Part shown: positions 5,374 through 55,353 of the stretch, in pieces
Position numbering within the stretch: the first letter of the stretch is position 1
Layout: each line of letters starts with the position of its first letter
Origin: an uncultured bacterium
GTDB lineage: Bacteria > Armatimonadota > Hebobacteria > CAIYQO01
Assembly (NCBI GenBank): GCA_964472305.1
Contig: CAYYJR010000011.1
Span: 547-64,546, forward strand
Length of the DNA stretch: 64,000 nt
Direction: 5' to 3'
The notes under the pieces: generated by a model
What the model was told of the DNA's origin: nothing
Databases searched by the model: none
What the model saw: the letters and a program-made list of their open reading frames with translations, nothing else
Program-made: the position numbers and the translations under genes

Positions 5374-5420
5374 ATCTTCCTTCCGGACATCAAAAAGCGG
5401 GACATCGCACGTATCGTCAG

Positions 5421-6098: not shown

Positions 6099-6107
6099 AT
6101 CGCCTCC

Positions 6108-6920
6108 TTAGCCGAATCGACCGGTGATGTAATCCTCGGTCCGCTTGTCAGTCGGATCAGTAAATAATTTTGTTGACTGGTTGAATTCGATCAATTCCCC
6201 GTTGAGGAAAAATCCCGTTTCATCAGAGACGCGCGCGGCCTGCTGCATATTGTGCGTCACAATGACAATAGTATAGCGCTCTTTCAGATCGAGCATAAGC
6301 TCCTCGATACTGGCGGTGGAAATGGGATCGAGTGCCGAACACGGTTCATCCATGAGCACCACGTCCGGTCGCACGGCCAGCACGCGGGCGATGCATAACC
6401 GTTGCTGCTGACCGCCGGAGAGCGAGGTGGCTGGATGATGCAGTACCTCTCGCACTTCATCCCACAAAGCTGCCTGCCGCAGGCTGTGTTCGACGAGTGC
6501 GTCCAGTTCGGCACCGCGGGCCAGCCCGTTCACGCGCGCCCCGTAGGCGACGTTATCGAAGATCGACATCGGGAAGGGGGTCGGGCGCTGAAAGACCATG
6601 CCGACATGGCGACGGAGGGCAACCACATCGATATCCGCGGCAGTGATGTCCTCGCTGTCCAGCAAGATGCGTCCTTCAGTGCGGGTGCCTTCGATGGTGT
6701 CGTTCATGCGGTTGATGGTGCGCAGGAAGGTCGATTTACCACAGCCGGACGGGCCGATGAGCGCGGTGATCCGGCGTTCCCGGATGACCAGGTTCACGTT
6801 GCGCAGCACCTGCTTGCGGCCATAGAAGAAATGCAAGCCCTCAATGCGTAGTTTTTCCGGATTGGCCATATCTTCCTCAATTCGCAGTGGCCGTGGTTGC
6901 ATGGTCGGTGTTTCCAGCAT
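6108..6920 (-). CDS. pstB: Phosphate ABC transporter ATP-binding protein PstB
   Basis: Walker [13 protein letters not shown] signature [15 protein letters not shown], Walker [13 protein letters not shown], and the PstB-typical FDNVAYG. Start placed at M38 (MLETPTM...), giving a 4-bp overlap with the pstA stop. The long N-terminal extension in the ORF track is probably spurious. Confidence 0.9.
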
Positions 6921-6922
6921 AG

Positions 6923-7795
6923 CTACCTCACAAAGCGGGCCCGACCGCGCGTCGCGTAGCGGGCGGCGACGCTCAGCACGAGAATCATCAACACCAGCAC
7001 CAGCGCGCCGGCCCAGGCTTGCGCGTGCCAATCGTCATAGGGGGCAATCGCATAGGTGTAAATCGATACGGGCAGACTTGCTATCGGCTGGTCGAGTTGG
7101 ACGCTGAAGAAGCGATTGCCGAAAGCAGTGAAAAGCAGCGGTGCGGTTTCCCCTGCAATGCGCGCAACCGCCAGCAGAATCCCGGTGACAATCCCGCCGC
7201 GCGCGCTGAGCATCACGACGGAAAGAACCGTTTTGAAGTGCGTCGCTCCCAGCGAGAGCGCGGCTTCGCGTTGTGAGACCGGCACCATGCGCACGAATTC
7301 TTCCGTCGTGCGGACGATGGTTGGAATCATCATAATCCCCAGTGCCACCCCGCCCGCCAGCGCGGAGAAATGATGCAGCGGTTTCACGATGATGCCCCAG
7401 ACGAAGACGCCGATCACGATCGAGGGAACGCTTGCCAGTACATCGGCGGTGAAGCGGATCACAGTTCCCACGCGGTGTTTGCCGAATTCCGCCAGGTATA
7501 TGCCACCGAGCAAGCCGAACGGCAAGCCGATCAGGCTCGCGAGGCCGATGAGGATGAGCGTGCCGACGATGGCGTTGGCCATGCCGCCGCCCGGTTCACC
7601 CACCGGTTTGGGCAGTTGGGTGAGGAATGCCAGGTTCAACGCCGGCAATCCTTGCCGGAACACGTAATACAGGACCATGATCAGCGGGATAATGGCGATG
7701 AGGGTCATCATCGCCGCCACGATCCACATCAGGTGATTGGCCGACCGTCGCCGTATCGTGAGCCAGTTCCGTTGTCGATGCAAATCGGTCATCAT
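6923..7795 (-). CDS. pstA: Phosphate ABC transporter permease PstA
   Basis: 290-aa polytopic permease with the EAA-like loop ([15 protein letters not shown]). Its stop overlaps the pstB start and its start overlaps the pstC stop. Confidence 0.85.
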
Positions 7796-8766
7796 TCGCG
7801 CACTCCCTGCACGTCCCCACGCGACACGCTCCAGATCAGCAGTCGCGCCACGACGTTGACGAGAATGGTGATGACGCCAAGCACCAGCACCACCTCGAAG
7901 AGGGAGGCTGTTTCCAGCTTCCCAGTTGCCTCGGCAAAGTTATTGACCAGCAGGCTGGGCATGGTATACCCCGGCTGAAACAGCGAGGCGGTGATCTGTT
8001 GCGCGCTGTTGCCGATCACCATCGTCACCGCCATCGTCTCGCCAAGGGCACGGCCCAGTCCGAGGATGATTCCACCGAGTATGCCGGTACGTGCATACCG
8101 CAGTACCGGCCCGCGCAGGGTTTCCCAGTGAGTGGCACCCAGGGCAAGAGACGCTTCGCGTTGTGTGTGCGGCACCGCCTGGATGACCTCACGCGCGACG
8201 GAGGTGATATATGGCAGGATCATGATCGCCAGGATCACCCCGGCGGCCAGTAAGCCGACGCCCAGCGGCGGCCCGGTGAAGAGCGGGATGAAACCCAGGT
8301 GCGCACCCAACCAACCCTCCGCCAGGCGTATCAGCGGCACCAGCACGAAAATTCCCCATAATCCGTAGACGATGCTGGGAACAGCAGCCAGCAGTTCGAC
8401 CACAAAGGACAATGGCCGCCGCAGCCATGGGGGGGCCAGCTCAGCCAGGAAAATCGCCGTGCCCAGGCTGACCGGCACCGCGATAAGCAGTGCCAGCAGC
8501 GAGGTGACGATGGTGCCGAAGATCGCGAAAAACACACCGTACTTATCGAAGACGGCATCCCAGATCGATGTGGTGAGAAATTGCCATTTGAATGCCGTGA
8601 TGGCCGGCTGCGCATCGCGGAACAGCACATATCCCAGCACGATAATCAGCAACGGCACGATCAGCGCAAAGGCAAAAGTGCTCCAGCGAAAGAGGCGATC
8701 AATCACATTGCCGCCGAACAGGCCGCGCCGCCGTAAAGAAGAACGGGTTGTCGAATAGGTCGCCAT
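7792..8766 (-). CDS. pstC: Phosphate ABC transporter permease PstC
   Basis: 324-aa permease with SLALGATHWETLRGPVLRYARTGILGG. Its stop overlaps pstA by 4 bp. Confidence 0.85.
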   Translation of the reverse strand: MATYSTTRSSLRRRGLFGGNVIDRLFRWSTFAFALIVPLLIIVLGYVLFRDAQPAITAFKWQFLTTSIWDAVFDKYGVFFAIFGTIVTSLLALLIAVPVSLGTAIFLAELAPPWLRRPLSFVVELLAAVPSIVYGLWGIFVLVPLIRLAEGWLGAHLGFIPLFTGPPLGVGLLAAGVILAIMILPYITSVAREVIQAVPHTQREASLALGATHWETLRGPVLRYARTGILGGIILGLGRALGETMAVTMVIGNSAQQITASLFQPGYTMPSLLVNNFAEATGKLETASLFEVVLVLGVITILVNVVARLLIWSVSRGDVQGVRE

Positions 8767-8781
8767 CAGATCACGATTCCG

Positions 8782-9915
8782 TTAGTGAGTTGCATGCAGC
8801 GGTTTCCCGTTCGACGTCACCGTACCAAGCAGGTGCTCGTTCAGCGCGGTCACCGCGGCCGGCAGAGGCGCATACAGCAGCGGCGCCGCATGCTGCTGCC
8901 CGTCATGAATCGCCCACCAGAGGAAATCGACCAACTCTGCGCCTTTCGTATGATCGGGTTGCTGCTGATACAGCAAAAGGTAGGTAAAACCACTGATGGG
9001 GTAGGCATCTTTCCCCGGTGCGTTGACGATGGAAACGCGCGCGTCCTTCCGCATGGCTTCGGCAGCGCCGTTTGCAGCCGCCTTGGTGGAAGCGATGCTG
9101 GGCGTCACGAAGGTACCGGTTTGATTGCGAATCGCGGCATACGGCAGCGCATTCTGTTCCGCGTATGCCAATTCCACGTAGCCGATGCTGCCCGGGGTTT
9201 GTTTCAACAAGCCGGCGACGCCTTCATTCCCCTTACCGCCGATGCCGGCCGGCCAGTTGACGGATTTGCCACTGCCGACTCTCGAAGCCCAGGTGTTACT
9301 GACGGCAGCCAGGTAATGGGTGAAGATATAGGTCGTGCCGCTGCCGTCGGAGCGGTGCGCTACGGCAATCGCCAGGTTCGGCAGCTTGAGTGTCGGATTG
9401 ACGGAAGCGATTCGCGAGTCACTCCACGTCGTGATCGCGCCGAGGAAAATGCCGGCCACCACCTCAGGCGTGAGCTTCACCCTGTCGGAGATACCGGGTA
9501 GGTTATACGCGAGCACCACCGCACCGGCGACCATGGGAAGCTGCACGACCGGCGCCGGCATCATTTTCAACTCTTCGTCCGAGAGCGGCGCGTCACTGGC
9601 GCCGAAATCGACCGTATTGGCCTGCAACTGCTTGATGCCGCCGCCACTGCCGATGGACTGATAGTTGATGCGTGCGTGCTGATGTGTTTCCCCATAGATC
9701 GCGAACCATTTGGAATACAGCGGATAAGGAAAAGTCGCGCCGGCGCCATTCAGGTTGACGACGGAGTCCGTGGCGGCTGGTTGCGCCTGGTCTTGCTGTG
9801 CCGTCAGGGGAGGAGTTTTTTTGCAGGATGCGACAGTGAATGCGATGACCAGCACGATGGCTGTCAGTATCCCCGCGCGCGGCAGGAAAACATGTGTATG
9901 TTGCTTATGCTTCAT
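8782..9915 (-). CDS. pstS: Phosphate-binding lipoprotein PstS
   Basis: Lipoprotein signal with lipobox (LVIAFTVASCKK). The PBP fold shows the phosphate-binding motifs YQSIGSGGGIKQ and FGASDAPLSDEE. First gene of pstSCAB-phoU-pit. Confidence 0.85.
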   Translation of the reverse strand: MKHKQHTHVFLPRAGILTAIVLVIAFTVASCKKTPPLTAQQDQAQPAATDSVVNLNGAGATFPYPLYSKWFAIYGETHQHARINYQSIGSGGGIKQLQANTVDFGASDAPLSDEELKMMPAPVVQLPMVAGAVVLAYNLPGISDRVKLTPEVVAGIFLGAITTWSDSRIASVNPTLKLPNLAIAVAHRSDGSGTTYIFTHYLAAVSNTWASRVGSGKSVNWPAGIGGKGNEGVAGLLKQTPGSIGYVELAYAEQNALPYAAIRNQTGTFVTPSIASTKAAANGAAEAMRKDARVSIVNAPGKDAYPISGFTYLLLYQQQPDHTKGAELVDFLWWAIHDGQQHAAPLLYAPLPAAVTALNEHLLGTVTSNGKPLHATH

Positions 9916-9973
9916 GGAAGCCAGCCCTTTCTATCGACGGCATGCACATTGATTGTCAGTTGTAGCGTACCGC

Positions 9974-9995
9974 CGAAATATTAGTATTGTGTGAG
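9974..9995 (-). promoter_or_regulatory. Candidate Pho box upstream of pstS (CTCACAC aata CTAATAT ttcg)
   Basis: Same 11-bp phased repeat type as upstream of the porin, about 60-80 nt upstream of the pstS ATG. Confidence 0.3.
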
Positions 9996-10067
9996 GATAA
10001 TAGTTTGGTTGTGCGCGGTTTTGTCGTTTCATCTGATCATTGAGCGACCGGGCATAGCCGCCGCAGG

Positions 10068-11234
10068 TTAGAACTTGGTTGCAAGGCCGATGGCAAACTG
10101 ATCCAGGTCGGGTGTATTCGTGCCGCCGTTAGTGGCATTACGCGTATACTCGGCTTTGAGGTCGGTCAACGGGGTGAGATGGAATCCCGCGCCGAGGGAG
10201 AACCGGGAGTATCGATTCACCGCCAACGTGCTGTCGACCAGTGTCGCCGTTTGCCCATCATTCAACTGCACCGTGCTATAGCGCGAGGCGAAATACAATC
10301 GGCCGGTGGCATTGATGAGTCCTTCGGCATACCAGTAGCTTGCCGTACGGTCAGTCGCGCCGGTGAAATTGTCATTGGCCTGGCCATAGGCAGTTGCGAG
10401 CTGGAATCGCGAAAGATTCGCTCCACTGGGAATGAGCGACTTGATGCCGGTGGTCCCGTAATTCCAGCGCGCGTCCACTTCCCACAGCGTACGATGCCAG
10501 CTGGTGACGCCGGCGGGAACGGCTTGCAGGTTGGCGACTTTTAACGCCGGAGCGATCACTGCGCCACCGAACTTGATATTCTCGCCGGAATCGTAACCGC
10601 TGACGGACAGGTAGACATTTTTATACGGGGCAATGCCGATTTTAGCTCCGGTCGCCAGTCCGTTGTTGGCTGAACCCACGCCACCGGTACCGTTCAGCAC
10701 ACTCAGCGAATAACTCGCCGGCATGCCGACCGGCAGGGAACCGCGGAAATTGATCCCGCCGTCATAGCCGCCTACTGCCGATGCTGAATTGGTGATGAGG
10801 ATGCCTTCCACCGGGTTGTCGGTCCAGGTTTCCTCGCCGATATCTACCTTGACTTTGCCCATTCGCATCGTGTGTCCCGGCAGCGCGCCTCCCCAGTTAT
10901 TCAAGTCCAGATAGAAGTAATCGAATCCGTTGCCGGTCGCCTTGTTGTTGCTGAAGCGATTGATGATGGTGAAGTCCTTGCGAGGCGTGAAAGTGAAGCG
11001 AAGCTTGGCATCCGGGATATCCAGTGCGCGATTGGCGTAGGCGCCATTCGCGTCGGAGTCAATGATGCCCATAAACAGGCGACCGTCGATCTTGAGGATC
11101 GAGCCATTACTGGCGGTCTGTACGGTCGGTGGGACGGCAGGCGGTATGATCGTCGTCGGCGCGTCTGCGGCAAACGCGTCCAGCGTGCCGGCGAAGATCA
11201 GTGCCAGTCCCAATGCCATTGCGGTTGTGTTCAC
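10068..11234 (-). CDS. Outer-membrane beta-barrel porin, probably phosphate-selective (OprO/OprP-like)
   Basis: Signal peptide (MALGLALIFAGTLDAFAADA), alternating beta-strand pattern, C-terminal ...AIGLATKF ending in Phe. Located between phoR and pstS with Pho-box-like repeats upstream. Start GTG (11234) or ATG (11219) behind RBS AGGAGG. Confidence 0.6.
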   Translation of the reverse strand: MNTTAMALGLALIFAGTLDAFAADAPTTIIPPAVPPTVQTASNGSILKIDGRLFMGIIDSDANGAYANRALDIPDAKLRFTFTPRKDFTIINRFSNNKATGNGFDYFYLDLNNWGGALPGHTMRMGKVKVDIGEETWTDNPVEGILITNSASAVGGYDGGINFRGSLPVGMPASYSLSVLNGTGGVGSANNGLATGAKIGIAPYKNVYLSVSGYDSGENIKFGGAVIAPALKVANLQAVPAGVTSWHRTLWEVDARWNYGTTGIKSLIPSGANLSRFQLATAYGQANDNFTGATDRTASYWYAEGLINATGRLYFASRYSTVQLNDGQTATLVDSTLAVNRYSRFSLGAGFHLTPLTDLKAEYTRNATNGGTNTPDLDQFAIGLATKF

Positions 11235-11328
11235 TGTAGTTATTCCTCCTGTTGTTCTGCGTTGCTGGCATGTCGGGGACGAAGTCGCCACGGGTCGTCC
11301 CACGGGCTGCCAGCATTTAGCTTACGGG

Positions 11329-11361
11329 GAGGTTATGAGCGGCGTGTTAGCGCAATGTGAG
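11329..11361 (-). promoter_or_regulatory. Candidate Pho box upstream of the porin gene (three 11-bp-phased repeats CTCACAT / CTAACAC / CTCATAA on the gene strand)
   Basis: On the gene strand: CTCACATtgcg CTAACACgccg CTCATAAcctc, about 95 nt upstream of the start. 7+4 periodicity as in enterobacterial CTGTCAT-type Pho boxes. Confidence 0.35.
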
Positions 11362-11475
11362 AGTTTGGTGGGGGGACACAATTAGCGGAGCTATTCGTGA
11401 GTAGTCGAAAATAACTCCATGTGGTGCGTATCCCATGGTGAGAATCATCGATGCCGGCGGGGAGAGTTCCTGTTG

Positions 11476-13269
11476 TTACTTCTCGTCGTGTTGCCCAGCG
11501 AGATGCGGCAGATACAGGGTGAAAAGACTGCCGTGGCCTACGGTGCTTTCCACGGTGACGTGGCCACCGTGCGCCTGGGCGATGTGTTTGACGATGGCCA
11601 GTCCCAAGCCGGTGCCGCCGAGTTTGCGGCTGCGGCCTTTATCCACGCGATAAAAGCGTTCGAAGAGGCGCGGCAGGTGCTCGGTAGGGATGCCGCTGCC
11701 GTGGTCGCGCACGCTGATCACGGCGTTGTCGTCGATGCGGGTGGCCGTCAGCTCGATGCGGCTGTGCGGTTCGCTGTATTTCAGAGCGTTGTCGAGCAGG
11801 TTGACCAGTGCCTGTTCGAGCAAGGCCGGGTTAACCCGCGCGCGCAACTCATCGGGACATTCCAGCGTGATGGTGATTTCTTTCGCCCCTGCCTTGAGTT
11901 CGCACGCCTGCACGGCGTTTTGTAAGATCACCGTCATTGCGCAATCGTCCAGGCGCAGCACGGCGGTTTCCGCCTCCTGTTCGATGCGCGACAGGCTGAG
12001 CAGGTCCTCGATAATCGCCTCCAGGCGATCAGCGTGGCGGGCGATGATCTGCAGGAAATGTTCCGCGTCGTCCGGCTGCCGCAGCGCTCCATCCTGCAGC
12101 GTCTCCACGAAGCCTTTGATCGAGGTGATGGGCGTCTTTAACTCGTGAGAAACGTTGGCGACGAAGTCACGGCGGATGCGCTCAAGCCGCCGCAGCCGCG
12201 TAATGTCGGTGAGCACCACCACGGCGCCCATGCGTCGGGCGGCTTCATCGTAGAGCGGTGTGCCGTGCACTTGCATGATGCGCTCATCGTCGCGCCGCAG
12301 GATCATCTCCGCTTCCAGCGGCTCGCGGCTGGCCAGCACCATGGCGACGAAGCGCTGTAGTTCGGTGTGGCGGATCACCTCCTGTAAACTGCGTCCCGCG
12401 GCCTGCTCGGCGTCAATCCCCACTAACTGCGCCGCCGCCTGGTTCAGCTTGAACACCTGCTCGTTGGAATCGACGGCAAATACCCCTTCCGACATGCCGG
12501 CCAGCACGGCGTCCTGCTCGTTGCGCTGCCGGGTGATGGCGCGGATGCGCTCATCCAGCCGGACGGCCATCTGGTTCATCGCCTCTGCCAACTTGCCGAT
12601 CTCCTCCGAATCCGGGATAGGCAGCGGGGTATCCAGTTCGCCGCGCGCGAAGCGTTGCGCGCCACGTTTCAGTGCTTCCAGTGGGCGGCTGATGCGGCGG
12701 GAAATGAGCAGGCTGGCGCCCGCGGCCAGCACCGCTACGATGAGCCAGCCGGCGATCAGCGAGTGGCGCATGGTGCGCAGCGCTTGTTCAACCGCGGTGA
12801 GCGGCACCGCGGCACGCACGATGCCGATGATCCCGCGCGTGCCGTGCGTTGGCACCGCGACATACATCATTTTCTCGCCCAGCGTGCGACTGAAACGAAT
12901 CGCCTGTCCGGTGCCCCCGCGCAACGCCTCTCGTACTTCCGGGCGGTCGGCATGGTTCTCCATCTGCGCGGGTTGTTCCTCGGAATCGCCGATCACACGG
13001 CCATCCGGCAGGATAATGGTGATGCGCGTCCGGCTGTCGCGGCCCGTGTGTTTGCACGTCGCATCCACCAGGGGGTATTGCCGGTTGCGCAGGGCGGGAT
13101 CGATGACGTGCGCGGCCAGTCGCGCACGCGCGGCCAGGTCGATTTCCTGCTGTTCCAGGAAGAATTGGTGGAAGAAATACGAGGCTGCCCAGCCCAGCGC
13201 CAGCAGCGAGAACAGCGTGATGAGCAGGAATGGCGAAAACAGTTGCCAGAGCAATCGCACACGGCGCAT
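11476..13269 (-). CDS. phoR: Phosphate regulon sensor histidine kinase PhoR
   Basis: N-terminal TM segments, HAMP, a PAS-like region, HisKA (RRDFVANVSHELKTPITSIKGF) and HATPase_c (N-box LVNLLDNALKYS, G-boxes DHGSGIP and GGTGLGLAIVKH). Its stop abuts the phoB stop/start region. Confidence 0.85.
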   Translation of the reverse strand: MRRVRLLWQLFSPFLLITLFSLLALGWAASYFFHQFFLEQQEIDLAARARLAAHVIDPALRNRQYPLVDATCKHTGRDSRTRITIILPDGRVIGDSEEQPAQMENHADRPEVREALRGGTGQAIRFSRTLGEKMMYVAVPTHGTRGIIGIVRAAVPLTAVEQALRTMRHSLIAGWLIVAVLAAGASLLISRRISRPLEALKRGAQRFARGELDTPLPIPDSEEIGKLAEAMNQMAVRLDERIRAITRQRNEQDAVLAGMSEGVFAVDSNEQVFKLNQAAAQLVGIDAEQAAGRSLQEVIRHTELQRFVAMVLASREPLEAEMILRRDDERIMQVHGTPLYDEAARRMGAVVVLTDITRLRRLERIRRDFVANVSHELKTPITSIKGFVETLQDGALRQPDDAEHFLQIIARHADRLEAIIEDLLSLSRIEQEAETAVLRLDDCAMTVILQNAVQACELKAGAKEITITLECPDELRARVNPALLEQALVNLLDNALKYSEPHSRIELTATRIDDNAVISVRDHGSGIPTEHLPRLFERFYRVDKGRSRKLGGTGLGLAIVKHIAQAHGGHVTVESTVGHGSLFTLYLPHLAGQHDEK

Positions 13270-40487: not shown

Positions 40488-43400
40488 TTGTCGAATACTT
40501 CCGGCATGGGCACGGTATCGCTGTGGTTGGGCCCGGCGGGGTGCGGCAAGACCGGCATGGCATTGTCAGTGCTGCGGGAGGAACTTGACCGCGGGTGGCA
40601 GGGAGTGCGCTTGCTGGCGCCGACGGTCGGGCACAAGCAGAGCATCGAGCACCTGTTGCTGGGGTGTGATGAGCGCCGCGGACTGATCGGCGATCCCGTC
40701 ACCACCTTCTTCAACTTCGCGGAAGAGGTGGTGGAGCGCAGCGGCGTGCGCGTGCGCCGGTTGAGCGAACTGCAGAAGCACCTGCTGCTGAAGAAGCTCA
40801 TTCGCGAGACGCCGTTGAGCTATTTCGAGCGCGCGCGCGCCTTTCCCGGCTTTGTGCTGGCGCTGGGCGAGGCGATCGATGAACTGAAGGTGCATATGAT
40901 CCGGCCGGAGGCGCTGCTGGCCGCCGCCGAGATCGCCGGCACGCGCGGCGCGGCCGGTTTCGCGCGCAAGTTGCACGAGCTGGGTGTGCTTTATCAGCAA
41001 TTTCAGACACTGGTATACCGTGAGGACCTGTTCGACAATGAAGGCATCATGTGGATCGCCGCCGAGCACCTGGCCAATCGTCCGGCGCTCTTTGCCGACT
41101 TGCGCTGCCTCATTCTTGACGGCTTCGCCCGTCTGACCCCTATTCAGGTGGAATTTCTTCGCGCCTTCGCGACGCGGCAGACACGCATCATTACGCTGTT
41201 CGATTACCAGGAAGGCCGCTCGGTCGCCTATCATCCGGTGGAAGAGTCACTGCGCAAGCTGGACGAAGCGCGCGTCCAGGGTGGCTTTACCGAGGAGCGC
41301 CGCCTCTTCGACCGTTGCGTGCCCGCGGGCACCACGCTGGCATTCGTGCGCACCGAGCTGTTCTGCGAGCGCCCGCATACCTGCGATCCTGACGACTCGC
41401 TGCACCTGCTGGTCGGCGCCACCCCCGCCCATGAAGCGGAACTGATCGCCCGCGCGGTGCGCGCGTTGCTGCGCGAGGGGCGTCTGGACGGCAAGCCGGT
41501 GACAGTGGACGATATCGCCATCCTGGCGCGCAACGCCGACAGCGTGCGCGAACGACTGGCGCGCACCTTCCGCCGTTTTGGGTTGTCGCTGCGCGAGGAG
41601 CCGCCGTTGCTGGCGCATACTCCGGTGGGGCGCGCTCTGCTGGCGACACTGCGACTGATCCGCGACGACTGGAAGCGTGAGGACTTGCTGACGCTGCTGA
41701 AGAGCGGTTTTTTGGCTATCGACCCCGCGGTGGCGTTCGAAATTGACCTGGCGGCGCGCACGCGGTACCTGCGCAGCCGTAAAGTCACCTGGCTGAGCGA
41801 GTGGCCGGATGAGGCGACCGCCGAGGTGTTGCGTGCGGCGCTGGCGCCCATCGCGATGTTCGACGAGGCGTTCCGCCAACACGGTCTCGACGCCGCCGCG
41901 CTGCTGCAGGCGGTCGAAGCGCTGCTGGAGGCATTCCGCGTTAACGCGTTGCCCGCACAGCCGCCGTTGCCGGACGAACACCCCGCGGAGGCTGCACGGT
42001 ATCGCGAGCAGACGGCGGCGTTTGCCCAGGCGGCGAGTGTGTTGACCGAGTTGCGCGGACTGGATGCGCTGCTGGGCGGTTTTCGCCGCGAGGAGTTGAT
42101 CGAACTGGTCACCACTTCGCTGCTGCACGTGCGTATGCCCGCCCGGTCCGGTGAAGGCGTAGCATTGCTCTCCGCGCACACTACCGGCGGGCAAAAGTTT
42201 CCAGTCGTGTTCCTCTGCGACTTGCTGCAAGGCGTCTTCCCGCGCCGCCAGCGCGAATCGGCCTTTCTACTCGATCACGAGCGCGACGAGACGTTGCGCG
42301 ACTTGAACGTGCTCATCGACACCCGCAAGCATCTGGAGGAAGACGAACAGTTTTGGTTTCTCCACGCGCTGTCCTCCGCCACCCGGCGGCTGGTACTCAG
42401 CTATCCGGCGCACGACGGCGATGGCCGCTCGCTGGAAACGTCGACCTTCGTGGACGAGGTGCTGCGGCTGGCACCCGCGCTGGTGGCAACCGCCGGGCGC
42501 ACGTCCTTCCGCGACGTGGTGCCGCCGCTGGAACAGGCGGAAAGCGCCGCGGAGTTTCTCGCCGGGCTGGTGCTCGGGCTGCGCACCGCGCGGGATCGGC
42601 AGGATTGCGCACAATTGGCTGTCGCCTACACCGCGAGCGCGCCGACGCACCGCACCCGCCTGGCTGCGTTTTTTCGCGCTGCGCAATCCGCCATCCCGGC
42701 GCTGGTCGCCCCCAACCTGCTGGACCGGGTGCGCGCGCGCCCCCGCGCGTATTCCGCTTCCGAACTGCAATCATACCTGGATTGCCCGTTCCTCTGGTTC
42801 GGCGCCTTCTGTCTGGCGGTCAGGCCGGTGGTGGAGGAATACGGCCCACTCGACCGCGGTGCCATCCTGCATGCGGTGCTGGAACAGCTCTACCGCGGTC
42901 GGCAACGGCGTCCCGGCGAACCGGTGCACCTGGAAGGCATCGATCCGGAGGCACTGTGGCCGGAAGTGGAAGCGGCGCTGCGGGAGCGACTGGCGCAGGA
43001 ACCGCGCTTTACAAACCGTCCCACCTTCCTGCGCGACATCGAGATGGAGAGCCTGTGCCGCCTGCTGCGGCGTTTCATCGCCAATGAGATTGTTCGCGCG
43101 CGCACCCGGCGCACGCATCCTGCCTATTTCGAGCGCCATTTCGGCAGTGGCCGTTACCAGCCGCTGCTGCTGGGCGACGGCACGGTGCCGCTGCGCGGCG
43201 TTATCGACCGCATCGACCTGGTTGATGATAATCCCGAGTGCGCGGTGGTGGTGGACTACAAGACTTCCGCGGGGATGACGTTGAAGGAGTTGGAGAGCGG
43301 CACCGTGCTGCAGGCGCCCATTTATGCGCTGGCACTCGAGCGCGTAACCGGTTTCACGCCGCTGGGCGTCGAGTTCATGGATTTGCGCCAGGGTGAAGGC

Positions 43401-43676
43401 AAAGGCATCTTTCATCAGGACGCCACCAAGCTCTATGGCAGTGGGAAAGGGATGAAAACGCTTGACGCCGTGGCCTGGCAGGCCTACCTTGCCGCCTGTG
43501 AAACCCGCCTCGTGGCCGCCGCCGGCGCCATGGCTGCCGGACATATCCCCCTTTCCCCCATGACCAAGCACTGTCCCCGCCATTGCGACTACCTCTCCCT
43601 CTGCCGCGGCGAACCCTTCTCCCTGGAAGAAATCGTCCGCGCCGGGAATAGCGAGACGCACTCGGTGGCCGAGTAG
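40488..43676 (+). CDS. addB: AddB/RexB-type helicase-nuclease subunit (PD-(D/E)XK nuclease with Fe-S cysteines)
   Basis: N-terminal degenerate P-loop LWLGPAGCGKTG and collinear similarity to B. subtilis AddB (QKHLLLKKLIRE, KLHELGVLYQQF, LILDGFARLTPIQVEFLRAF). C-terminal RecB-family nuclease motif VVDYKTS flanked by Cys (DCPFLWFGAFC ... KHCPRHCDYLSLC). TTG start at 40488 or ATG at 40506. Confidence 0.75.
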   Translation: MSNTSGMGTVSLWLGPAGCGKTGMALSVLREELDRGWQGVRLLAPTVGHKQSIEHLLLGCDERRGLIGDPVTTFFNFAEEVVERSGVRVRRLSELQKHLLLKKLIRETPLSYFERARAFPGFVLALGEAIDELKVHMIRPEALLAAAEIAGTRGAAGFARKLHELGVLYQQFQTLVYREDLFDNEGIMWIAAEHLANRPALFADLRCLILDGFARLTPIQVEFLRAFATRQTRIITLFDYQEGRSVAYHPVEESLRKLDEARVQGGFTEERRLFDRCVPAGTTLAFVRTELFCERPHTCDPDDSLHLLVGATPAHEAELIARAVRALLREGRLDGKPVTVDDIAILARNADSVRERLARTFRRFGLSLREEPPLLAHTPVGRALLATLRLIRDDWKREDLLTLLKSGFLAIDPAVAFEIDLAARTRYLRSRKVTWLSEWPDEATAEVLRAALAPIAMFDEAFRQHGLDAAALLQAVEALLEAFRVNALPAQPPLPDEHPAEAARYREQTAAFAQAASVLTELRGLDALLGGFRREELIELVTTSLLHVRMPARSGEGVALLSAHTTGGQKFPVVFLCDLLQGVFPRRQRESAFLLDHERDETLRDLNVLIDTRKHLEEDEQFWFLHALSSATRRLVLSYPAHDGDGRSLETSTFVDEVLRLAPALVATAGRTSFRDVVPPLEQAESAAEFLAGLVLGLRTARDRQDCAQLAVAYTASAPTHRTRLAAFFRAAQSAIPALVAPNLLDRVRARPRAYSASELQSYLDCPFLWFGAFCLAVRPVVEEYGPLDRGAILHAVLEQLYRGRQRRPGEPVHLEGIDPEALWPEVEAALRERLAQEPRFTNRPTFLRDIEMESLCRLLRRFIANEIVRARTRRTHPAYFERHFGSGRYQPLLLGDGTVPLRGVIDRIDLVDDNPECAVVVDYKTSAGMTLKELESGTVLQAPIYALALERVTGFTPLGVEFMDLRQGEGKGIFHQDATKLYGSGKGMKTLDAVAWQAYLAACETRLVAAAGAMAAGHIPLSPMTKHCPRHCDYLSLCRGEPFSLEEIVRAGNSETHSVAE

Positions 43677-47609: not shown

Positions 47610-48977
47610 ATGACTCCTCAGAATCCAGACACCGTTGACAACGCCTCCACCCGTGCCGCGGGAGAGCTGGACACGCTGGCGCAGTTTCGCGCCTTTCGTG
47701 CAACGCACGACATCGCCCTGCGGGATCAACTCGTCTGTCGCTATCTGCACCTGGTGCACAGCGTCGCCCGCCGCTTCAGCGGCATGGGCGAATCGGTGGA
47801 GGATCTGGTGCAGGAAGGCACTATCGGCTTGCTGAACGCCGTCGACCTGTACGATCCCGAACGGGGAGTTAAATTCAGCACGTATGCCTGCCACCTCATC
47901 ACCAGCCAGATGCAGCACTACCTGCGCGACCGCGGCCGGCTGATCCGTCAACCGGCGTGGGTGCAGGAACTGAACACCAAAATTACCCGCTCCACCGAAC
48001 AGCTCGCGCAGGAACTGGGACGCGATCCCTCGTCGGCAGAGGTGGCGGAACGGTTGAACATCTCTGAGGATTCGGTGCAGAACGTGCTGGCCGCCCGCGA
48101 GTTGAACCGTGTGATGTCGCTTAACGCCCCCGCCGACGGCAGCAGCGACTCCGAGTTGTCGCTGGTGGAAAAGGAGAAGGGATCCGTCTCCAAGCTGACT
48201 GCAATGCAGTTGCCGGTGGAAGATCGCATCGTGCTCGACGACGCAATTAACGGTCTGAAAGAGCTGGAACAAAAAGTGGTGCGCCTCTTCTTTTTCGGCG
48301 ATTTCAACCAGACGGAGATCGCGCGCAAACTCGGCATTTCGGTCAACTACTCGTCCTATTTGCTCCGCCGCTCAGTCACGAAGATCAAAGCGGTACTGGA
48401 TGAACAGCGCATCCAGGAAACGGCGGCATTACTGGAGAGTGAAACCGAGCGTATACAGTTATCGGCCGATCTACCAACCCACGATGCCGTCGCCGGCGTT
48501 TATTCCGGTGCCTATCTGCGCGCACGGGTTGCCGAAGAGATTGCCCGCGGTCGCCGTTATCCGACCAATTTCGCGCTGATGCTGGCTGGCGTGCAAGGCT
48601 TCGATCCCGCTGATGCCGAGCAGGCGCGGCTGGTGCTGCCGCCTATCGGACAGTTGCTGCGCAGTTGTACCCGCATTGTGGACCTGACCGCCCATATCGG
48701 CAACGGTCAGTTCGGATTGCTGCTCCCCCACACGGGCCGCGAGGCGAAGGTGCTTGGTGAGCGCCTGTGCGTTCAGGTGGCCACGCGCGAATTGCTACCT
48801 CCCGGCTGCATGCTGTCGCTGGTGTTGAATGTCGGATTCGCGGTCTTCCCGATGGAGGGCGCCAGTGTGGAGATGCTGTTTGATCGCGCGGAACACGCGC
48901 TGGCGCAGGCTGTCAAGGCCGGGCACAATACCGTCATGGGAGTGCCGGTTGCCCGTATCCCGCTGAAAGTGGTGTAA
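47610..48977 (+). CDS. Group-3 (SigB/SigF-like) sigma-70 factor fused to a degenerate GGDEF domain with an intact I-site
   Basis: Sigma region 2 (DLVQEGTIGLLNAVDLYDPERGVKFSTYACHLI) and region 4 HTH (QTEIARKLGISVNYSSYLLRRSV). Residues ~285-455 align to GGDEF, but the active site is GNGQF, the DxD metal site is lost (LAGVQG) and RIVD sits exactly 5 residues before it (RxxD I-site retained). The C-terminal DRAEHALAQAVKAGHNTV matches the GGDEF tail. Confidence 0.7.
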   Translation: MTPQNPDTVDNASTRAAGELDTLAQFRAFRATHDIALRDQLVCRYLHLVHSVARRFSGMGESVEDLVQEGTIGLLNAVDLYDPERGVKFSTYACHLITSQMQHYLRDRGRLIRQPAWVQELNTKITRSTEQLAQELGRDPSSAEVAERLNISEDSVQNVLAARELNRVMSLNAPADGSSDSELSLVEKEKGSVSKLTAMQLPVEDRIVLDDAINGLKELEQKVVRLFFFGDFNQTEIARKLGISVNYSSYLLRRSVTKIKAVLDEQRIQETAALLESETERIQLSADLPTHDAVAGVYSGAYLRARVAEEIARGRRYPTNFALMLAGVQGFDPADAEQARLVLPPIGQLLRSCTRIVDLTAHIGNGQFGLLLPHTGREAKVLGERLCVQVATRELLPPGCMLSLVLNVGFAVFPMEGASVEMLFDRAEHALAQAVKAGHNTVMGVPVARIPLKVV

Positions 48978-49206: not shown

Positions 49207-52200
49207 ATGGGGAAGGAGGCTTCGGTGAAACGAATGGGATGGCTCAGTGTGCTGATGATCGTGCTGGCGGGCATGTGCTGGAGCGTCGCGACGGCGCAGT
49301 TCGCCTGGGATCCCCAGGAATTTATGGGGATCGATGAGATCAGACCAGGCATGACCGGATACGGCAAAACGGTTTTCGAAGGCACCAAGGTCGACAAATT
49401 CGACATCGAAGTGATCGGTGTACTGAAGAAGATCGATTTCGGCTTCGACATGATCCTGATTAAAGTGACCAGCGGGCCCGTTATCGATCGGAAGCTGCAA
49501 ACCGTCTCCGGGATGAGCGGCAGTCCCATCTATATCGAAGATCGGCTGATCGGCGCGTATGCGTATGGTTGGGAGTTCCAGCAGGAAGCGATCGCCGGTG
49601 TCACCCCCATCGCGGCGATGATGGAATGTAGCCAGCCCGGTTCGACAGCGCCGCAGCTCATCGGCAGCCTGGTACCGCGCAACCGCGTGCTGCATATCGG
49701 CAAGCACATGATTACCCGCGTCGAGGTGGTGTCCAACCCCTCGGAAGCGCGGCAGTTGCAGGCGAAAGCTGATCCGACTACCATGGTGCTGGCGCCGGTC
49801 GCCACCCCGGTGTTTGTGAGCGGCATGTCCGAAAAGGCGCTGCCGTCGCTGCAGAAAATCTTCGATCGATATAATCTGCGCGCGTTGCCGGGCGCGGGTC
49901 CGATGGACGGTCCCGCTCCGCCACTGGAAGCGGGTTCCGCTGCCGCCGTGTCGCTGATGGAAGGCGACGCTAACATGAGCGCGGTCGGCACTGTCACCTA
50001 CGTGAAGGGTGACACCGTGCTCGTATTCGGGCATCCGTTCCTCGGGGTTGGGAAGATCGACCTGCCGCTTTCCGCGGCGTACGTGCATGGGATTATCAGC
50101 AGCAGTGCCTCATCATTTAAACTCGCCTCGCCACTTGGCGAGGTGGGCGCCGTCACCTCGGACCGCGCCTTTGCCGTCGCCGGCATTCTCGGGCGCAAGG
50201 CGGAGGTGCTGCCGGCTACGCTGTATCTGAACGATCCCACGCGCAAGTTCACCCGGCGCTATCAGGCCAATCTGATGAGTGACCCCAACTTCACCCCCGC
50301 GCTGCTCTATATGTGGATCATCTATAACGGCGCGCAGCAGATGGGCGATCTCATGGGTGACGAGGGAACCTTTGTCGGGCGCATGCTGCTCAATACGGAT
50401 ACACTGGGCAGCATCGATCAAACCATCGCCGTCTGCCCGCAAATGAGCAGCACCTTCTTTCCGTTCAGTGAGTATTATGAGCTAGCCGACCTGTTAATGA
50501 AGAATCCGTATGAACCGGTGAAACTGAAGGAGATCTTCATCGACCTGAAATATACTCCCGAGCGCAATGTCGCGGTCATCGAAAAGGTTACACCGGACCG
50601 TCCGATCGCCCGTCCGGGCGATATTGTCAACCTGTCGGTGAACATTCGACCGTATGGCAAACCACTGGAAACGCGCACCGTGTCGGTGAAGGTGCCCGAG
50701 CGGGCGACTGAACCGGTGATGCTGGTGGTGGTAGCCGGCGGCACGATGGCCCCGTTTGTCAAACCATTGCTCAGTCCGGAGCCAACGTCGGAAGAAGGAT
50801 TGAAAGGAGTGGTGCGCTGGCTCACTAATAATCCGTCCAACCAGAGCCTGCTGACCGTGAAAATATTACCGTCACCCAGTTATGGGTATCGCGCGCACCT
50901 CTTGCGTGATGTGCCGTTGCCCGTGCTGGATCTGCTGCGGTTTGCCGAGACGGGCATCACGCCCCAAACCCGCAGCACAGGCGATTCCGGCGAGAATGCG
51001 CGAGAGGGGCAGAGCGGCGGCTTTGGCGGTAATGTTCAGCCCACCGCGTATATGACAATTGAAGATGTGCCATATTCGCTGGGCGGCGGTCAGATTATCT
51101 CCATCGCCATCGATACCGAGGAACGGGCGCTGCAGTCGCGACGCGGCCCCTTCGACTTCGGCATGCAGTTGCCGGTCCTGAGCTCGTCGCTCAACCCGGG
51201 GCGTGAAGCTCCTGAAGAAGGCAACGGTCCACCGTCGGGCAAAGATGAGATCGCCATGTATTCATCGTTGTTAACCCCACAGCAGAGGGCACGATTCGCG
51301 ATGATGCAGGAAATGTTCAAAGTGCCGACGGCACCGGTGACGCGAATGACGTTGCCCACCCTGACGGGACGCACGCTGGGTCGCGCCGAGTTGCTCTCAC
51401 GCGCCCTGTTGGCCAATCCACGTGCCGGCGAGGATGCAGAAATTGACGCCCAACCACCGGGCGATGGCGAAAAAAGTGAAGCCGGTCTGAAAGACGCGGA
51501 AACCGATGAGAATGGGCAGGCGCAGGAAGAGGATAATCCCGACGCTGACAATGCCAAGGAGCCTGGTTATGGCGAGTTGAAGTCGCTGCTCACCCGCAAG
51601 CAGATGAGTTGGGGCTTGACAGGACGGCGCGATTTCTTGCGCGGCAAGCATCTCGGCACCGGCGTTACCTCGCGCGGCAACCTGGTGCTGGTGCCCGCCG
51701 TGCGCTCGATCTACCAGACAAACAAGCTCATTCCCTGGAAGATCATCACCACAGCCAACGGCACCTACCTGTCCGGTTGGGGCAGCAGCAACATCGTGAA
51801 ATTCACCGCCGAGGGGAAGAGCGAAACCTTCTTCCCGAAGGTCGCATTGACCACGCCCGTGGAAGCGGTGACCGCCCTGGCCAGCGATGCCGACGGCAAC
51901 CTGCTCATCGGCACCTGGCCTGATCAGCGCGTCCGCCTGGTGGATACGACGGGTACGGTGAAACGTGAATGGGTACTGCCCGGCGGATCCATCTGGGATC
52001 TGGCTGTCACAAAGAACGGCAATCGGTATGCCGCTTGCGATGAAGGAATGGTCTATCTCCTGCGCGACCAGGCAGATGTGCCGCTGCAGGTGGCCTGCAC
52101 GGTGCCCGATAAACAGGTCTTTGTGTTGTCCGCCGCCGCTAACGGCGACCTGCTGATGGCTACCTCGCCGCGTGGCAAGGTGTATCGCCTGAAGGCTGTA

Positions 52201-53943
52201 GACGGGCAACTGAATTCGGTGTATGAGGCGCAAGGTGCGGTGACCAGCCTGACCACTGATGCGCAGGGGAACGTTTACGTGGGCACCTCGCCGCTGTGCC
52301 AGGTGTTCCGCATCAGCCCGGACGGCACCCAGCAGGAGATTATGCGCGGCATGGGCCGCGGCAATCGCCATGTGCTGTCGTTGCAAATGGTCGGCGATGA
52401 CCTGTACGCCGCCACCGGACCGGCCGGCGGCATCTACCGCATCAGCCAACCGACCAGCATGGAAGCAGAAGTCACCGCCGTCTTCGCTCGTGAAGACGCG
52501 CGGACCGGCGGTGAAGTTGATTCGGCCGGCTCTCCCGATGGCGTCGGCCCCGAATCGGTCATGGTGAATGCGCTGACGGTGAATGCCCGTGGCGAACTGC
52601 TGGCAGCGGCTTCCACGCCCGGTCAGGTGCTGAAGCTGGAAAACCGTACACAGGGCGCCTTCCTTTCCACCGTACTGCAGACCCCGGTGGTCGCACGTTG
52701 GGGACATTTCGACCTTCATGGCAATTTCGGTGAGGGCCAGACACTGGTGGTCGACAGCCGCAGTGGCAGCACCGCGGTGCCAGATAATACCTGGAGCCAG
52801 TGGACGGAAATCAGCAGTGACTGGTCGGAACTCACCAGTCCGCCGGCGCCGTTTGTGCAGTTCCGCGTGCGCATGTCCGGCGCGACGTCCCCATCGCTCG
52901 CCTATGCCCGCTTGTTCTACCAACCATCCAACCAGGCGCCGAAAATTCGCCTGCTGCAACCGCGCCCCGGCCAGTATTGGAGTGGAATGAAATCAATCCG
53001 CTGGGAAGCAATGGACCCAGATGGCGACACCCTGGTCTTCAACGTCTCAACCTCGCGCAATAACGGGAAGACGTGGTCGCTGATGGTGCGGACGCCCGAC
53101 GCGCCCCAACCGGAAGCCGCGCCGAAAGAGAACACAGCTGAACCGGCGGATAAAAAAGCCGATGAATCACAGACGCCGAAAGCCGATGCCGTTGCAAAAC
53201 CGGCGAAGTCCGGCAAGGAGAAGGTAAAAGGCGAGAAACCCGGGAAACCTGCGAAGGATCAGGTAGAAGTGTCGAAAGTGGTGGATCCGGTCAAAGGCAC
53301 ATCGACCGATACCAAACCCACGGCGGAAACGCCCAAACCGGAGGAGAAACCTGCGGTGAAATCGAGAAGATCCGATTCTGAACTGGCTGAATCCACTATG
53401 CCGTGGGATACCAAATCCACGCCGGATGGTCTTTACCTGCTGAAGATCGAAGCGTCGGATAAATACGCGAAACCCACCGATCCGAAGAGTGCGGTAGTCA
53501 TCTCCGGCGCCGTGATGATCGACAACACGCCGCCGTCCATCGCGCTGGACGATAAAGTCTATGGATGGGACGGTCTGAAGCGCATTGTCCTCACGGATAA
53601 CCTGACGGCACTGATGGGTGGCAAATACCGCATCGAGGATGGTCCGTGGACCGCGCTGGTCGCGGAAGACGGCATGTTCAATGCTCGTCAGGAAGCTGCG
53701 TTGCTGGTAACCCCCACCGGTGATGTCGCACTCACCAAGGGTGAATATAAAGTCGAACTCCAGGCGTTCGATTCCGCCGGCAATATGCTTGATCGCACGA
53801 TCACCGTACTGGTCGGCATTCAACCCCCACGTCCCCCGGCTAGTTTGGACGTACCGCCGGTGGGGGAGGCCAAAATCGGCGATATCAACCTCACCGAGCA
53901 TGAACGCCGGCTGGCTGAGATCCTGTTGCGCGGCCTGGAATAA
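49207..53943 (+). CDS. Giant secreted multidomain protein: SpoIVB-like (S55) serine-peptidase motifs, low-complexity linkers, Reg_prop-type beta-propeller, Ig/FN3-like domains
   Basis: Signal peptide KRMGWLSVLMIVLAGMCWSVATAQFA. Residues ~50-170 match the Ser half of SpoIVB (DKFDIEVIGV...MILIKVTSGPVIDRKLQTVSGMSGSPIYIEDRLIGAYAYGW). The His-half-like segment (AVGTVTYVKGDTVLVFGHPF...VHGIISSSASSFKLASP) comes later. Acidic/Pro-rich and Lys/Pro-rich linkers separate repeats DADGNLLIGT, AANGDLLMAT, DAQGNVYVGT. Start ATG 49207 or GTG 49225. Terminator follows at 53969. Confidence 0.6.
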   Translation: MGKEASVKRMGWLSVLMIVLAGMCWSVATAQFAWDPQEFMGIDEIRPGMTGYGKTVFEGTKVDKFDIEVIGVLKKIDFGFDMILIKVTSGPVIDRKLQTVSGMSGSPIYIEDRLIGAYAYGWEFQQEAIAGVTPIAAMMECSQPGSTAPQLIGSLVPRNRVLHIGKHMITRVEVVSNPSEARQLQAKADPTTMVLAPVATPVFVSGMSEKALPSLQKIFDRYNLRALPGAGPMDGPAPPLEAGSAAAVSLMEGDANMSAVGTVTYVKGDTVLVFGHPFLGVGKIDLPLSAAYVHGIISSSASSFKLASPLGEVGAVTSDRAFAVAGILGRKAEVLPATLYLNDPTRKFTRRYQANLMSDPNFTPALLYMWIIYNGAQQMGDLMGDEGTFVGRMLLNTDTLGSIDQTIAVCPQMSSTFFPFSEYYELADLLMKNPYEPVKLKEIFIDLKYTPERNVAVIEKVTPDRPIARPGDIVNLSVNIRPYGKPLETRTVSVKVPERATEPVMLVVVAGGTMAPFVKPLLSPEPTSEEGLKGVVRWLTNNPSNQSLLTVKILPSPSYGYRAHLLRDVPLPVLDLLRFAETGITPQTRSTGDSGENAREGQSGGFGGNVQPTAYMTIEDVPYSLGGGQIISIAIDTEERALQSRRGPFDFGMQLPVLSSSLNPGREAPEEGNGPPSGKDEIAMYSSLLTPQQRARFAMMQEMFKVPTAPVTRMTLPTLTGRTLGRAELLSRALLANPRAGEDAEIDAQPPGDGEKSEAGLKDAETDENGQAQEEDNPDADNAKEPGYGELKSLLTRKQMSWGLTGRRDFLRGKHLGTGVTSRGNLVLVPAVRSIYQTNKLIPWKIITTANGTYLSGWGSSNIVKFTAEGKSETFFPKVALTTPVEAVTALASDADGNLLIGTWPDQRVRLVDTTGTVKREWVLPGGSIWDLAVTKNGNRYAACDEGMVYLLRDQADVPLQVACTVPDKQVFVLSAAANGDLLMATSPRGKVYRLKAVDGQLNSVYEAQGAVTSLTTDAQGNVYVGTSPLCQVFRISPDGTQQEIMRGMGRGNRHVLSLQMVGDDLYAATGPAGGIYRISQPTSMEAEVTAVFAREDARTGGEVDSAGSPDGVGPESVMVNALTVNARGELLAAASTPGQVLKLENRTQGAFLSTVLQTPVVARWGHFDLHGNFGEGQTLVVDSRSGSTAVPDNTWSQWTEISSDWSELTSPPAPFVQFRVRMSGATSPSLAYARLFYQPSNQAPKIRLLQPRPGQYWSGMKSIRWEAMDPDGDTLVFNVSTSRNNGKTWSLMVRTPDAPQPEAAPKENTAEPADKKADESQTPKADAVAKPAKSGKEKVKGEKPGKPAKDQVEVSKVVDPVKGTSTDTKPTAETPKPEEKPAVKSRRSDSELAESTMPWDTKSTPDGLYLLKIEASDKYAKPTDPKSAVVISGAVMIDNTPPSIALDDKVYGWDGLKRIVLTDNLTALMGGKYRIEDGPWTALVAEDGMFNARQEAALLVTPTGDVALTKGEYKVELQAFDSAGNMLDRTITVLVGIQPPRPPASLDVPPVGEAKIGDINLTEHERRLAEILLRGLE

Positions 53944-54057: not shown

Positions 54058-55353
54058 TTATTCTTCTTCCTCCATCGTCTCCAGTGCTTCATCCCAGTCG
54101 AAAATGATCTGGTTGCCGCCGATGTGCTGTGCTTGCGACACACACTGGCTGGCCTTGAGCGTCAACTGCTCGACGGTGGTCACGCGTACGGACAGGCAGG
54201 CAACGCCAATGCTGACGGAGAAATGTCCCAGGCCTTGTGCATTCTGGATGGTCAATGCCGAGATGCGCTCGCGCAGGCGCTCCGCTACCACCACCGCGCC
54301 GATGCCCGGCGTCGACGGCAGCAGCACCCAGAACTCCTCATCGGTATATCGCGCAGCCATATCGCGCGCGCGCACGCAGCCTTGAATCTCCTGGGCGATG
54401 CGCGCCAATACCTCGTCGCCAAAGTTGACGCCGAAGTTCTGGTTCATGGATTGCAGATGGTCAGCGGTGACAATCAGCAGCGACAGGTGACCACCGGTCT
54501 GAATGGCTTCAGTCACGTACCGCTGGATTTCGTCGAGAAAGTGCTGCTTGTTCGATAGTCCGAGTTCGGGATCAGTCGTGCTATTGGGATCAAATCGCCC
54601 CTTCAATGACGCGAGCTGGCGCGCGGTAGTGTCCAGTGTGGTCTGCAGCCGCATCTCGCGCAGACGCGCGGCTAGCAGTTGCCCGACCAGGCGCAAAGTT
54701 TCCAACTCCACCGATTGGAGTGATCGACCTTCGATGTCAGCGAGTACGATGGCGCCCATTGGCGTGGCGTGGGCCGCCAGCGGCGCCAGGATCAACGTGC
54801 GCGCCGTGTGACTCTGTTCGGCGCTGCCGTCTTCCGCGGGCGGCAACTGCCGATCGAAATCGGTAATCACCCGCACGTCGCTGGCGCCTTTGCGCATTAA
54901 GTGGGTTACCAGCGCAATCACCCGTTGCAGCGGAAAAACCTCTTCCTCATCCGACATGATGAGCGCCATGGAGGAGAGCACTTTGCCGTCGTGCAGCAGA
55001 ATAGTGCCGTATTCCATACCGTAGGTTTCGGCCAGACGTCCGATGGCATATTCCAGCAATTCGCTCTCCTGGCGCAGGCGCAGCATGGTGGAACCGACTT
55101 CACGGGTGAAATGCAGCAGTTTACTCGCCAGGATCTGCGTATCGTCATGTTGTTGCTCGGTAGTTGAATTAGCCATAAAAGAATACCATTCACGGAATAA
55201 TTGTCGCGCCATCGAGGCATGCGCGGTTGCATCGACATCCGAGCGGCGAGCGCATTTGACACCCGCCGAAGAGACCGGCAAAATATAGTCTTCAAGGAGA
55301 TCATCGGATTGCCGGCGAAAAGACTTAACCAACTTATTCCAGCGCGCGAGCAA
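54058..55353 (-). CDS. GAF-domain protein with degenerate GGDEF domain (RYTDEEF), likely non-catalytic
   Basis: N-terminal GAF-like regions. The C-terminal GGDEF fold (LIVTADHLQSMNQNFG, GDEVLARIAQ) has TDEEF in place of GG(D/E)EF and an RARD I-site 5 residues upstream. Confidence 0.6.
   Translation of the reverse strand: MLARWNKLVKSFRRQSDDLLEDYILPVSSAGVKCARRSDVDATAHASMARQLFREWYSFMANSTTEQQHDDTQILASKLLHFTREVGSTMLRLRQESELLEYAIGRLAETYGMEYGTILLHDGKVLSSMALIMSDEEEVFPLQRVIALVTHLMRKGASDVRVITDFDRQLPPAEDGSAEQSHTARTLILAPLAAHATPMGAIVLADIEGRSLQSVELETLRLVGQLLAARLREMRLQTTLDTTARQLASLKGRFDPNSTTDPELGLSNKQHFLDEIQRYVTEAIQTGGHLSLLIVTADHLQSMNQNFGVNFGDEVLARIAQEIQGCVRARDMAARYTDEEFWVLLPSTPGIGAVVVAERLRERISALTIQNAQGLGHFSVSIGVACLSVRVTTVEQLTLKASQCVSQAQHIGGNQIIFDWDEALETMEEEE

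Follow-up and report, generated by a model that had tools for sequence, protein, structure and literature searches.

The gene at positions 49207–53943 (+) of the window, the 64,000-nucleotide stretch of DNA analysed here, codes for a protein whose sequence supports an S55-like domain with its two barrels in exchanged order: the Ser barrel comes first and the His/Asp barrel second. With a probability of about 0.7, this protein is a Sec-exported, permuted serine endopeptidase of the S55/clan PA type, probably active, which works in the cell envelope together with a propeller/Ig partner that is fused to it here. Few enzyme scaffolds have been studied as thoroughly as the chymotrypsin fold (clan PA), whose His-Asp-Ser order is, to our knowledge, treated as invariant. 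A large natural barrel-swapped family that has kept its three catalytic residues would be a case study of how a two-domain active site undergoes circular permutation and of how a fold tolerates re-connection. The interest lies in the topology of the family and in its two-gene organisation; the window gene itself is an ordinary fused member.

The open reading frame corresponds in length and in its signal-peptide-like N-terminus to the 1.6-kaa secreted protein that had been proposed by the sequence-only reading. A product identical in all 1578 aa was called from an independent Logan assembly, where the flanking genes agree in length and Pfam domains as well. Starting at an alternative in-frame ATG (48988) would extend the protein by 73 basic residues that contain no domain, and homologues give no support for this start. 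The N-terminal hydrophobic helix, which spans aa 3–25 in the structure model and ends with VATA/Q in the sequence, looks like a Sec signal peptide. The evidence reaches as far as export to the envelope, and the surface location suggested earlier goes beyond it. The acidic and the K/P/E-rich linkers that had been noted are both present. The features of the gene are as follows.

49207..53943 (+): whole open reading frame, 1578 aa plus stop; an S55-like protease module fused to a propeller/Ig partner module.
49207..49299 (+): signal peptide, aa 1–31 (...SVATA/Q), as judged from sequence and from the helix at 3–25 in the model.
49324..49641 (+): Ser barrel plus terminal helix, aa 40–145, with GMS104GSP; homologous to the C-terminal barrel of SpoIVB; Ser104 codon at 49516–49518.
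49642..49926 (+): inserted alpha/beta domain between the barrels, aa 146–240, about 95 aa.
49933..50208 (+): His/Asp barrel, aa 243–334; His276 at 50032–50034, Asp319 at 50161–50163, conserved Asp254 at 49966–49968.
50209..51126 (+): rest of the conserved ~600-aa module, aa 335–640, with alpha/beta domains and an Ig-like beta-sandwich, as indicated by full-length homology to ~600-aa proteins, the secondary structure of the model and a weak beta-sandwich match to 5x7g.
51127..51591 (+): acidic low-complexity linker, aa 641–795, which stands where split genomes have the stop, an intergenic gap and the signal peptide of the partner.
51592..53841 (+): partner-homologous module, aa 796–1545, with a Reg_prop/PQQ-like beta-propeller (about aa 820–1170), a beta-sandwich carrying the motif TRSGNT..PD.TWS.WS, and Ig-like domains.
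53095..53361 (+): K/P/E-rich low-complexity insertion in the partner module, aa 1297–1385, with no residue-for-residue match in other partners.

The likeness of the N-terminal part to the Ser half of SpoIVB, which had been claimed before, is borne out by several comparisons. The Pfam profile PF05580 (Peptidase_S55) matches aa 54–119 with 27.4 bits (gathering cutoff 25); the match occupies positions 126–191 of the 210 profile positions and thus covers the Ser half only. The SpoIVB equivalog model TIGR02860 matches aa 54–118 only, and its score of 29 bits lies below the curated cutoff of 305.25. The sole solved relative found by sequence is 9lnf, a crystal chain of SpoIVB, which is matched by aa 54–120; with a family profile of 48 sequences, this match improves to an E-value of 2e-09. 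In a profile-profile comparison, the Ser barrel aligns with SpoIVB 328–415 over 87 columns, including GMSGSP and the C-terminal helix (E 4e-19). The SpoIVB sequence used is that of the 9lnf chain except for the mutated Ser motif, and its numbering reproduces His236, Asp363, Ser378 and Thr393. The putative nucleophile in GMS104G and the putative general base in GH276 align with SpoIVB Ser378 and His236, respectively, and both are invariant.

The motif FGH276PF is located 172 aa C-terminal of Ser104, in agreement with the earlier claim that a His segment follows about 170 aa downstream in an order opposite to that of SpoIVB. By means of hhalign, aa 246–334 were paired with SpoIVB 207–305, with His276 placed on the catalytic His236 (E 0.0056). 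The paired motifs of the window protein and SpoIVB are GD254 and RD213, GTVTY and GTMTF, FGH276 and LGH236, and K305...G326 and RFSSERKTIG...FG. When the natural order of SpoIVB was restored in silico by joining aa 243–334 to aa 44–145, a single collinear alignment of 182 columns over SpoIVB 209–418 resulted, with an E-value of 1.5e-18; it spans HMM positions 12–221 of a SpoIVB profile that starts at residue 198. In SpoIVB, His236 precedes Ser378. In contrast, Ser104 comes first in the window protein and in 243 of 243 relatives. As both S55 halves are homologous and the Ser segment is N-terminal, both are present in reversed order, with about 95 residues between them. In the window protein, no PDZ domain was found ahead of the protease domain. 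In the motif pairs given in the sequence-only reading, the protein labels had been swapped: DKFDIEVIGV, GMSGSPIYI and GTVTYVKG belong to the window protein, EKFDIEIV and GTMTFYEP..YGALGH to SpoIVB from B. subtilis.

The structure model of the first 620 aa has a pLDDT of 86 and a pTM of 0.81, with pLDDT values below 50 at aa 581–608. In this model each barrel is six-stranded, as is characteristic of the two trypsin-type beta-barrels of clan PA. Ser104 is located in the first barrel, between its strands 3 and 4; in the second barrel, His276 follows strand 3 and Asp319 lies just before strand 6. We take these loop positions to be those of chymotrypsin Ser195, His57 and Asp102. Ser104-His276-Asp319 is the predicted catalytic triad, and the two barrels would pack canonically. 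A Foldseek search against the PDB gave nothing significant. Family S55 is placed in clan PA by MEROPS, with the peptidase unit at 188–426 (table quoted in PMC3944710).

All three putative triad residues are present in each of the 243 relatives that cover the three positions. His276 and Asp319 do not vary in any of the 261 aligned sequences and Asp254 is found in 255 of them, although the aligned relatives are only about 30% identical to the query. Downstream of the Ser motif, the invariant positions of the family alignment are G243, G253-D254, G261-T262, G275-H276, G282, G314 and D319. In a set of SpoIVB sequences from Bacillaceae, D213, H236, N290, D363, S378 and T393 are all invariant. In the alignment, Asp319, which occupies the Asp102-like position, stands opposite Asn290 of SpoIVB and Asp254 opposite Asp213; both SpoIVB residues are invariant. 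The third member of the triad is therefore not shared with SpoIVB, the only characterised relative. Residues 213, 286 and 290 of B. subtilis SpoIVB belong to the region aligned to aa 254 and 319 of the window protein. The alignment further suggests that SpoIVB may lack a classical third triad residue. This fits the doubt expressed in the SpoIVB crystal paper, where Asp363 was located about 24 Å from His236 and its catalytic role was questioned (PMC12502668). The pairing of Asp319 with Asn290 may thus help with the unresolved third catalytic residue of SpoIVB.

For the C-terminal part, a propeller and Ig-like domains had been proposed. The propeller is confirmed: when aa 792–1198 were scanned alone, Reg_prop matched with 36.2 bits (cutoff 20.4), and the profile of the C-terminal module matches solved beta-propellers down to E 3e-50. 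For the Ig-like domains, the matches to Big_3_3 and Big_13 are sub-threshold. The partner profile also matches domains of hybrid two-component sensors, including 4a2l (E 1.6e-12); the match to Y_Y_Y has an E-value of 0.14 only. The domain scan detected no kinase or receiver domains anywhere in the window protein.

The view of the product as a single giant protein does not hold for the family. In a Brocadiia genome and in another metagenomic contig, a protease gene of about 610–627 aa is directly followed by a gene of 729–772 aa, and both of these neighbours (loci L082 and L084) are collinear with aa ~800–1540 of the window protein (E 7e-22 and 2e-27). In total, 58 of the 85 loci that were fetched contain the partner. 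In 40 loci it is encoded by a gene of its own beside the protease gene, in 15 it is part of the same open reading frame, and two loci (L016 and L064) have ambiguous frame bounds. The frames of split pairs either overlap, by anything from a few bases to about 230, or leave a gap of up to 176 bases. The 15 fused loci, one of which (L001) is the window's own gene, come from Armatimonadota, Obscuribacterales, Hebobacteria, Zipacnadia and other lineages, and include the closest relative (L002). Split partners start with a signal peptide of their own, followed by the conserved motif W.Q....DF.kG, which is found in the window protein at aa ~801–812, after the 155-aa acidic linker. This collinearity indicates that two genes which are neighbours elsewhere are fused in the window gene. 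Among the fetched loci, no partner was found beside the gene in Negativicutes, Thermotogae, Caldatribacteriota and Binatia; the protease therefore does not strictly need it. The conservation of the partner and the existence of natural fusions nevertheless argue for a physical complex of protease and propeller.

A plausible mechanism can be outlined as follows. The Ser barrel (aa 40–145), the linking domain of about 95 aa and the His/Asp barrel (aa 243–334) would form a circularly permuted double barrel of the chymotrypsin type. This catalytic unit is part of the conserved ~600-aa module, which would work in most diderm phyla with an exported propeller/Ig neighbour, and this neighbour might serve as a platform for binding substrates or ligands. 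Fusion by a disordered acidic linker, as in Armatimonadota and Obscuribacterales, would result in a tethered 1:1 complex. From these data we infer catalytic activity, a physical cooperation of protease and propeller, and a role in the envelope or at the outer membrane.

Three alternatives have to be weighed against the permuted protease. Taken alone, the His barrel reaches an hhalign probability of less than 10% (E 0.006–0.012), which corresponds to a modest sequence similarity, and its likeness to SpoIVB could be coincidental. In that case, aa 243–334 would be an unrelated small barrel of the MreC, PilZ or OB type, the Ser barrel alone would be derived from S55, and no permuted fold would exist. 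However, four motifs align collinearly, and His276 is placed on the catalytic His236. The Viterbi score of the His barrel (20.3) was reached by none of 200 column-shuffled profiles, which gave 11.95 ± 2.46 with a maximum of 19.0. It likewise exceeds both cross-barrel controls, which are at background level (12.3 for the His barrel against the SpoIVB Ser barrel, 10.0 for the Ser barrel against the SpoIVB His barrel). Moreover, the strict invariance of His276 and Asp319 is hard to explain in a non-catalytic barrel, and the Ser barrel would be left on its own; we know of no catalytic function of a lone Ser barrel. A coincidental likeness is thus unlikely. Quite unlikely, too, is that the module is a pseudo-protease without catalytic activity, used by an envelope protein for binding or as a scaffold in the manner of MamO, a repurposed trypsin-like fold. 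The large non-catalytic propeller and Ig-like extensions suggest binding. Yet GMSGSP, His276 and Asp319 are strictly invariant at about 30% identity, and pseudo-enzymes normally lose their catalytic residues; the preservation of the triad residues at this distance argues for an active enzyme.

The separation of the two parts into two genes in 40 fetched loci might also indicate that the 1.6-kaa frame was created by an assembly error or a frameshift that joined neighbouring genes. This origin is extremely improbable, given the identical protein from the Logan assembly and the uninterrupted single frames in 15 fetched loci. Furthermore, both modules are contained in one chain in 100 of 142 new cluster representatives (50% identity) that are nearest to it, so that the fusion is a frequent, lineage-typical arrangement rather than an artefact. 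The 155-aa linker takes the place of the partner signal peptide, which is not compatible with simple read-through. The fused, permuted protease accordingly remains the preferred reading.

SpoIVB is a sporulation checkpoint protease that acts between the two forespore membranes. The window protein has a Ser barrel that is clearly homologous to that of SpoIVB from B. subtilis (S55.001, clan PA, 9lnf): GMSGSP corresponds to GMSG(A/S)P, and the DKFDIEV motif as well as the C-terminal helix are shared. For the His barrel the homology is of lower significance, and the catalytic His is aligned. A further common trait is export to a compartment that two membranes enclose. In contrast to SpoIVB, the order of the barrels is reversed in the window family, an insert of about 95 aa lies between the barrels of the window protein and no PDZ domain was detected in it, and the family is found in non-sporulating diderm phyla. 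Due to these differences and the failed equivalog cutoff, the window protein is not an orthologue of SpoIVB. It belongs to the Vpar_0521-like family as a regular member, and its place within S55 and clan PA is that of a distant, permuted relative.

With HtrA, DegP, DegS and other periplasmic clan-PA proteases, the family has in common a double beta-barrel serine protease and accessory domains for substrate binding. However, those enzymes possess the canonical His-Asp-Ser order and C-terminal PDZ domains, in place of which the window family has the propeller/Ig partner; the sequence of the window protein has no detectable similarity to proteases of the HtrA/DegP/DegS type. The hybrid two-component sensors of Bacteroides (Reg_prop plus Y_Y_Y; 4a2l, 3v9f, 3ott) are likewise exported and have Reg_prop-type blades followed by Ig-like domains. 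In contrast to them, the window protein has no transmembrane kinase, receiver or HTH output, and its propeller module is linked to a protease. In the literature searched, neither the barrel permutation nor the protease-propeller pair is described, and annotation at database level elsewhere is possible; this topological variant of an S55/clan PA protease is apparently undescribed.

An S55-like domain in a diderm had been taken to be exceptional, which proved to be wrong because the family is spread widely over diderm phyla. Among scored candidates, 1,800 proteins matched the first 620 aa at E ≤ 1e-3, most of them about 600 aa long; among the matches listed, the relatives cover 53–95% of aa 1–620. 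Several are already named "SpoIVB peptidase S55 domain-containing protein" by NCBI. An exhaustive search of 1.84 billion cluster representatives at 50% identity yielded 5,926 matches at E ≤ 1e-3 and 1,791 at E ≤ 1e-30, and at least 598 stretches, from contigs of one genome per species, encode a relative. The lineages comprise Armatimonadota, Planctomycetota (anammox bacteria included), Acidobacteriota, Myxococcota, Gemmatimonadota, Zixibacteria, Latescibacterota, Spirochaetia, Obscuribacterales, Thermotogae, Caldatribacteriota and Negativicutes (Veillonella, Megasphaera, Dialister, Pelosinus). The family is thus very widespread in diderm phyla without well-studied models, including Melainabacteria, and matters for envelope biology.

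In Negativicutes, the gene is located inside the conserved outer-membrane gene cluster, between mreB on its upstream side and mlaE-mlaF-mlaD-tolC on its downstream side, in 10 loci, in three of which tolC or mreB was not detected (L079 at 4307–12244, L022, L026, L030, L036, L042, L043, L060, L061 and L069). An upstream mreB also occurs in some loci of other Bacillota and of Caldatribacteriota. Since TolC is Vpar_0525 and the gene order is mreB, S55-like gene, mlaEFD and tolC, the member from V. parvula is presumably Vpar_0521. This protein was detected in outer-membrane fractions of V. parvula and was singled out as conserved in diderm Firmicutes and as carrying an unexplained N-terminal "SpoIVB" domain (PMC5491611). 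The window protein is an end-to-end member of the same ~600-aa family, N-terminal export signal included. It shares the ~600-aa module with Vpar_0521 and the S55-domain proteins named by NCBI at about 30% identity over roughly 85–90% of aa 1–620; the Ser-first order is also common to them (PF05580 matches only aa 28–130 of the Veillonella protein). In contrast to the window protein, which is fused and has no conserved neighbours, the members from Negativicutes lack a propeller partner and lie between mreB and mlaEFD-tolC. A peptidase S55 domain protein was co-purified with BamA in Acetonema longum (PMC13018214); this protein, F7NM31, may be a true SpoIVB rather than a member of the Vpar_0521-like family.

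A more far-reaching and rather doubtful proposal is that the permuted S55 protease and its propeller constitute an ancient diderm envelope system for the processing of outer-membrane or periplasmic proteins. SpoIVB would then be its circular-permutation relative, either derived from it or of shared ancestry. If true, a core signalling protease of sporulation would be tied to the ancestral diderm envelope of Firmicutes, and the chymotrypsin clan would gain its first natural member with swapped barrels and catalytic activity. With tractable members in Veillonella parvula and Myxococcus, the function of the family is directly testable.

None of the window's neighbour genes recurs beside relatives. 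They code for AddB-like, TPR, GT4, T2SS-F, sigma70-GGDEF fusion, GAF-GGDEF, amidohydrolase and GH3 proteins. The gene at 40488–43676 (+) codes for an AddB-type helicase-nuclease subunit (ADDB_N, UvrD_C, PD-(D/E)XK) and is followed by the TPR and GT4 glycosyltransferase genes, which is an ordinary housekeeping content. Two domains of the c-di-GMP type flank the protease gene, neither of which is conserved beside relatives. Directly downstream and convergent with it, a GAF-GGDEF protein is encoded at 54058–55353 (-). Upstream, at 47610–48977 (+), a 455-aa protein of the sigma-70 family (regions 2, 3 and 4) is fused to a C-terminal GGDEF-like domain with a degenerate signature, as its translation contains neither GGDEF nor GGEEF. 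The gene of this fusion starts immediately after the T2SS-F stop and ends 230 nt before the protease frame.
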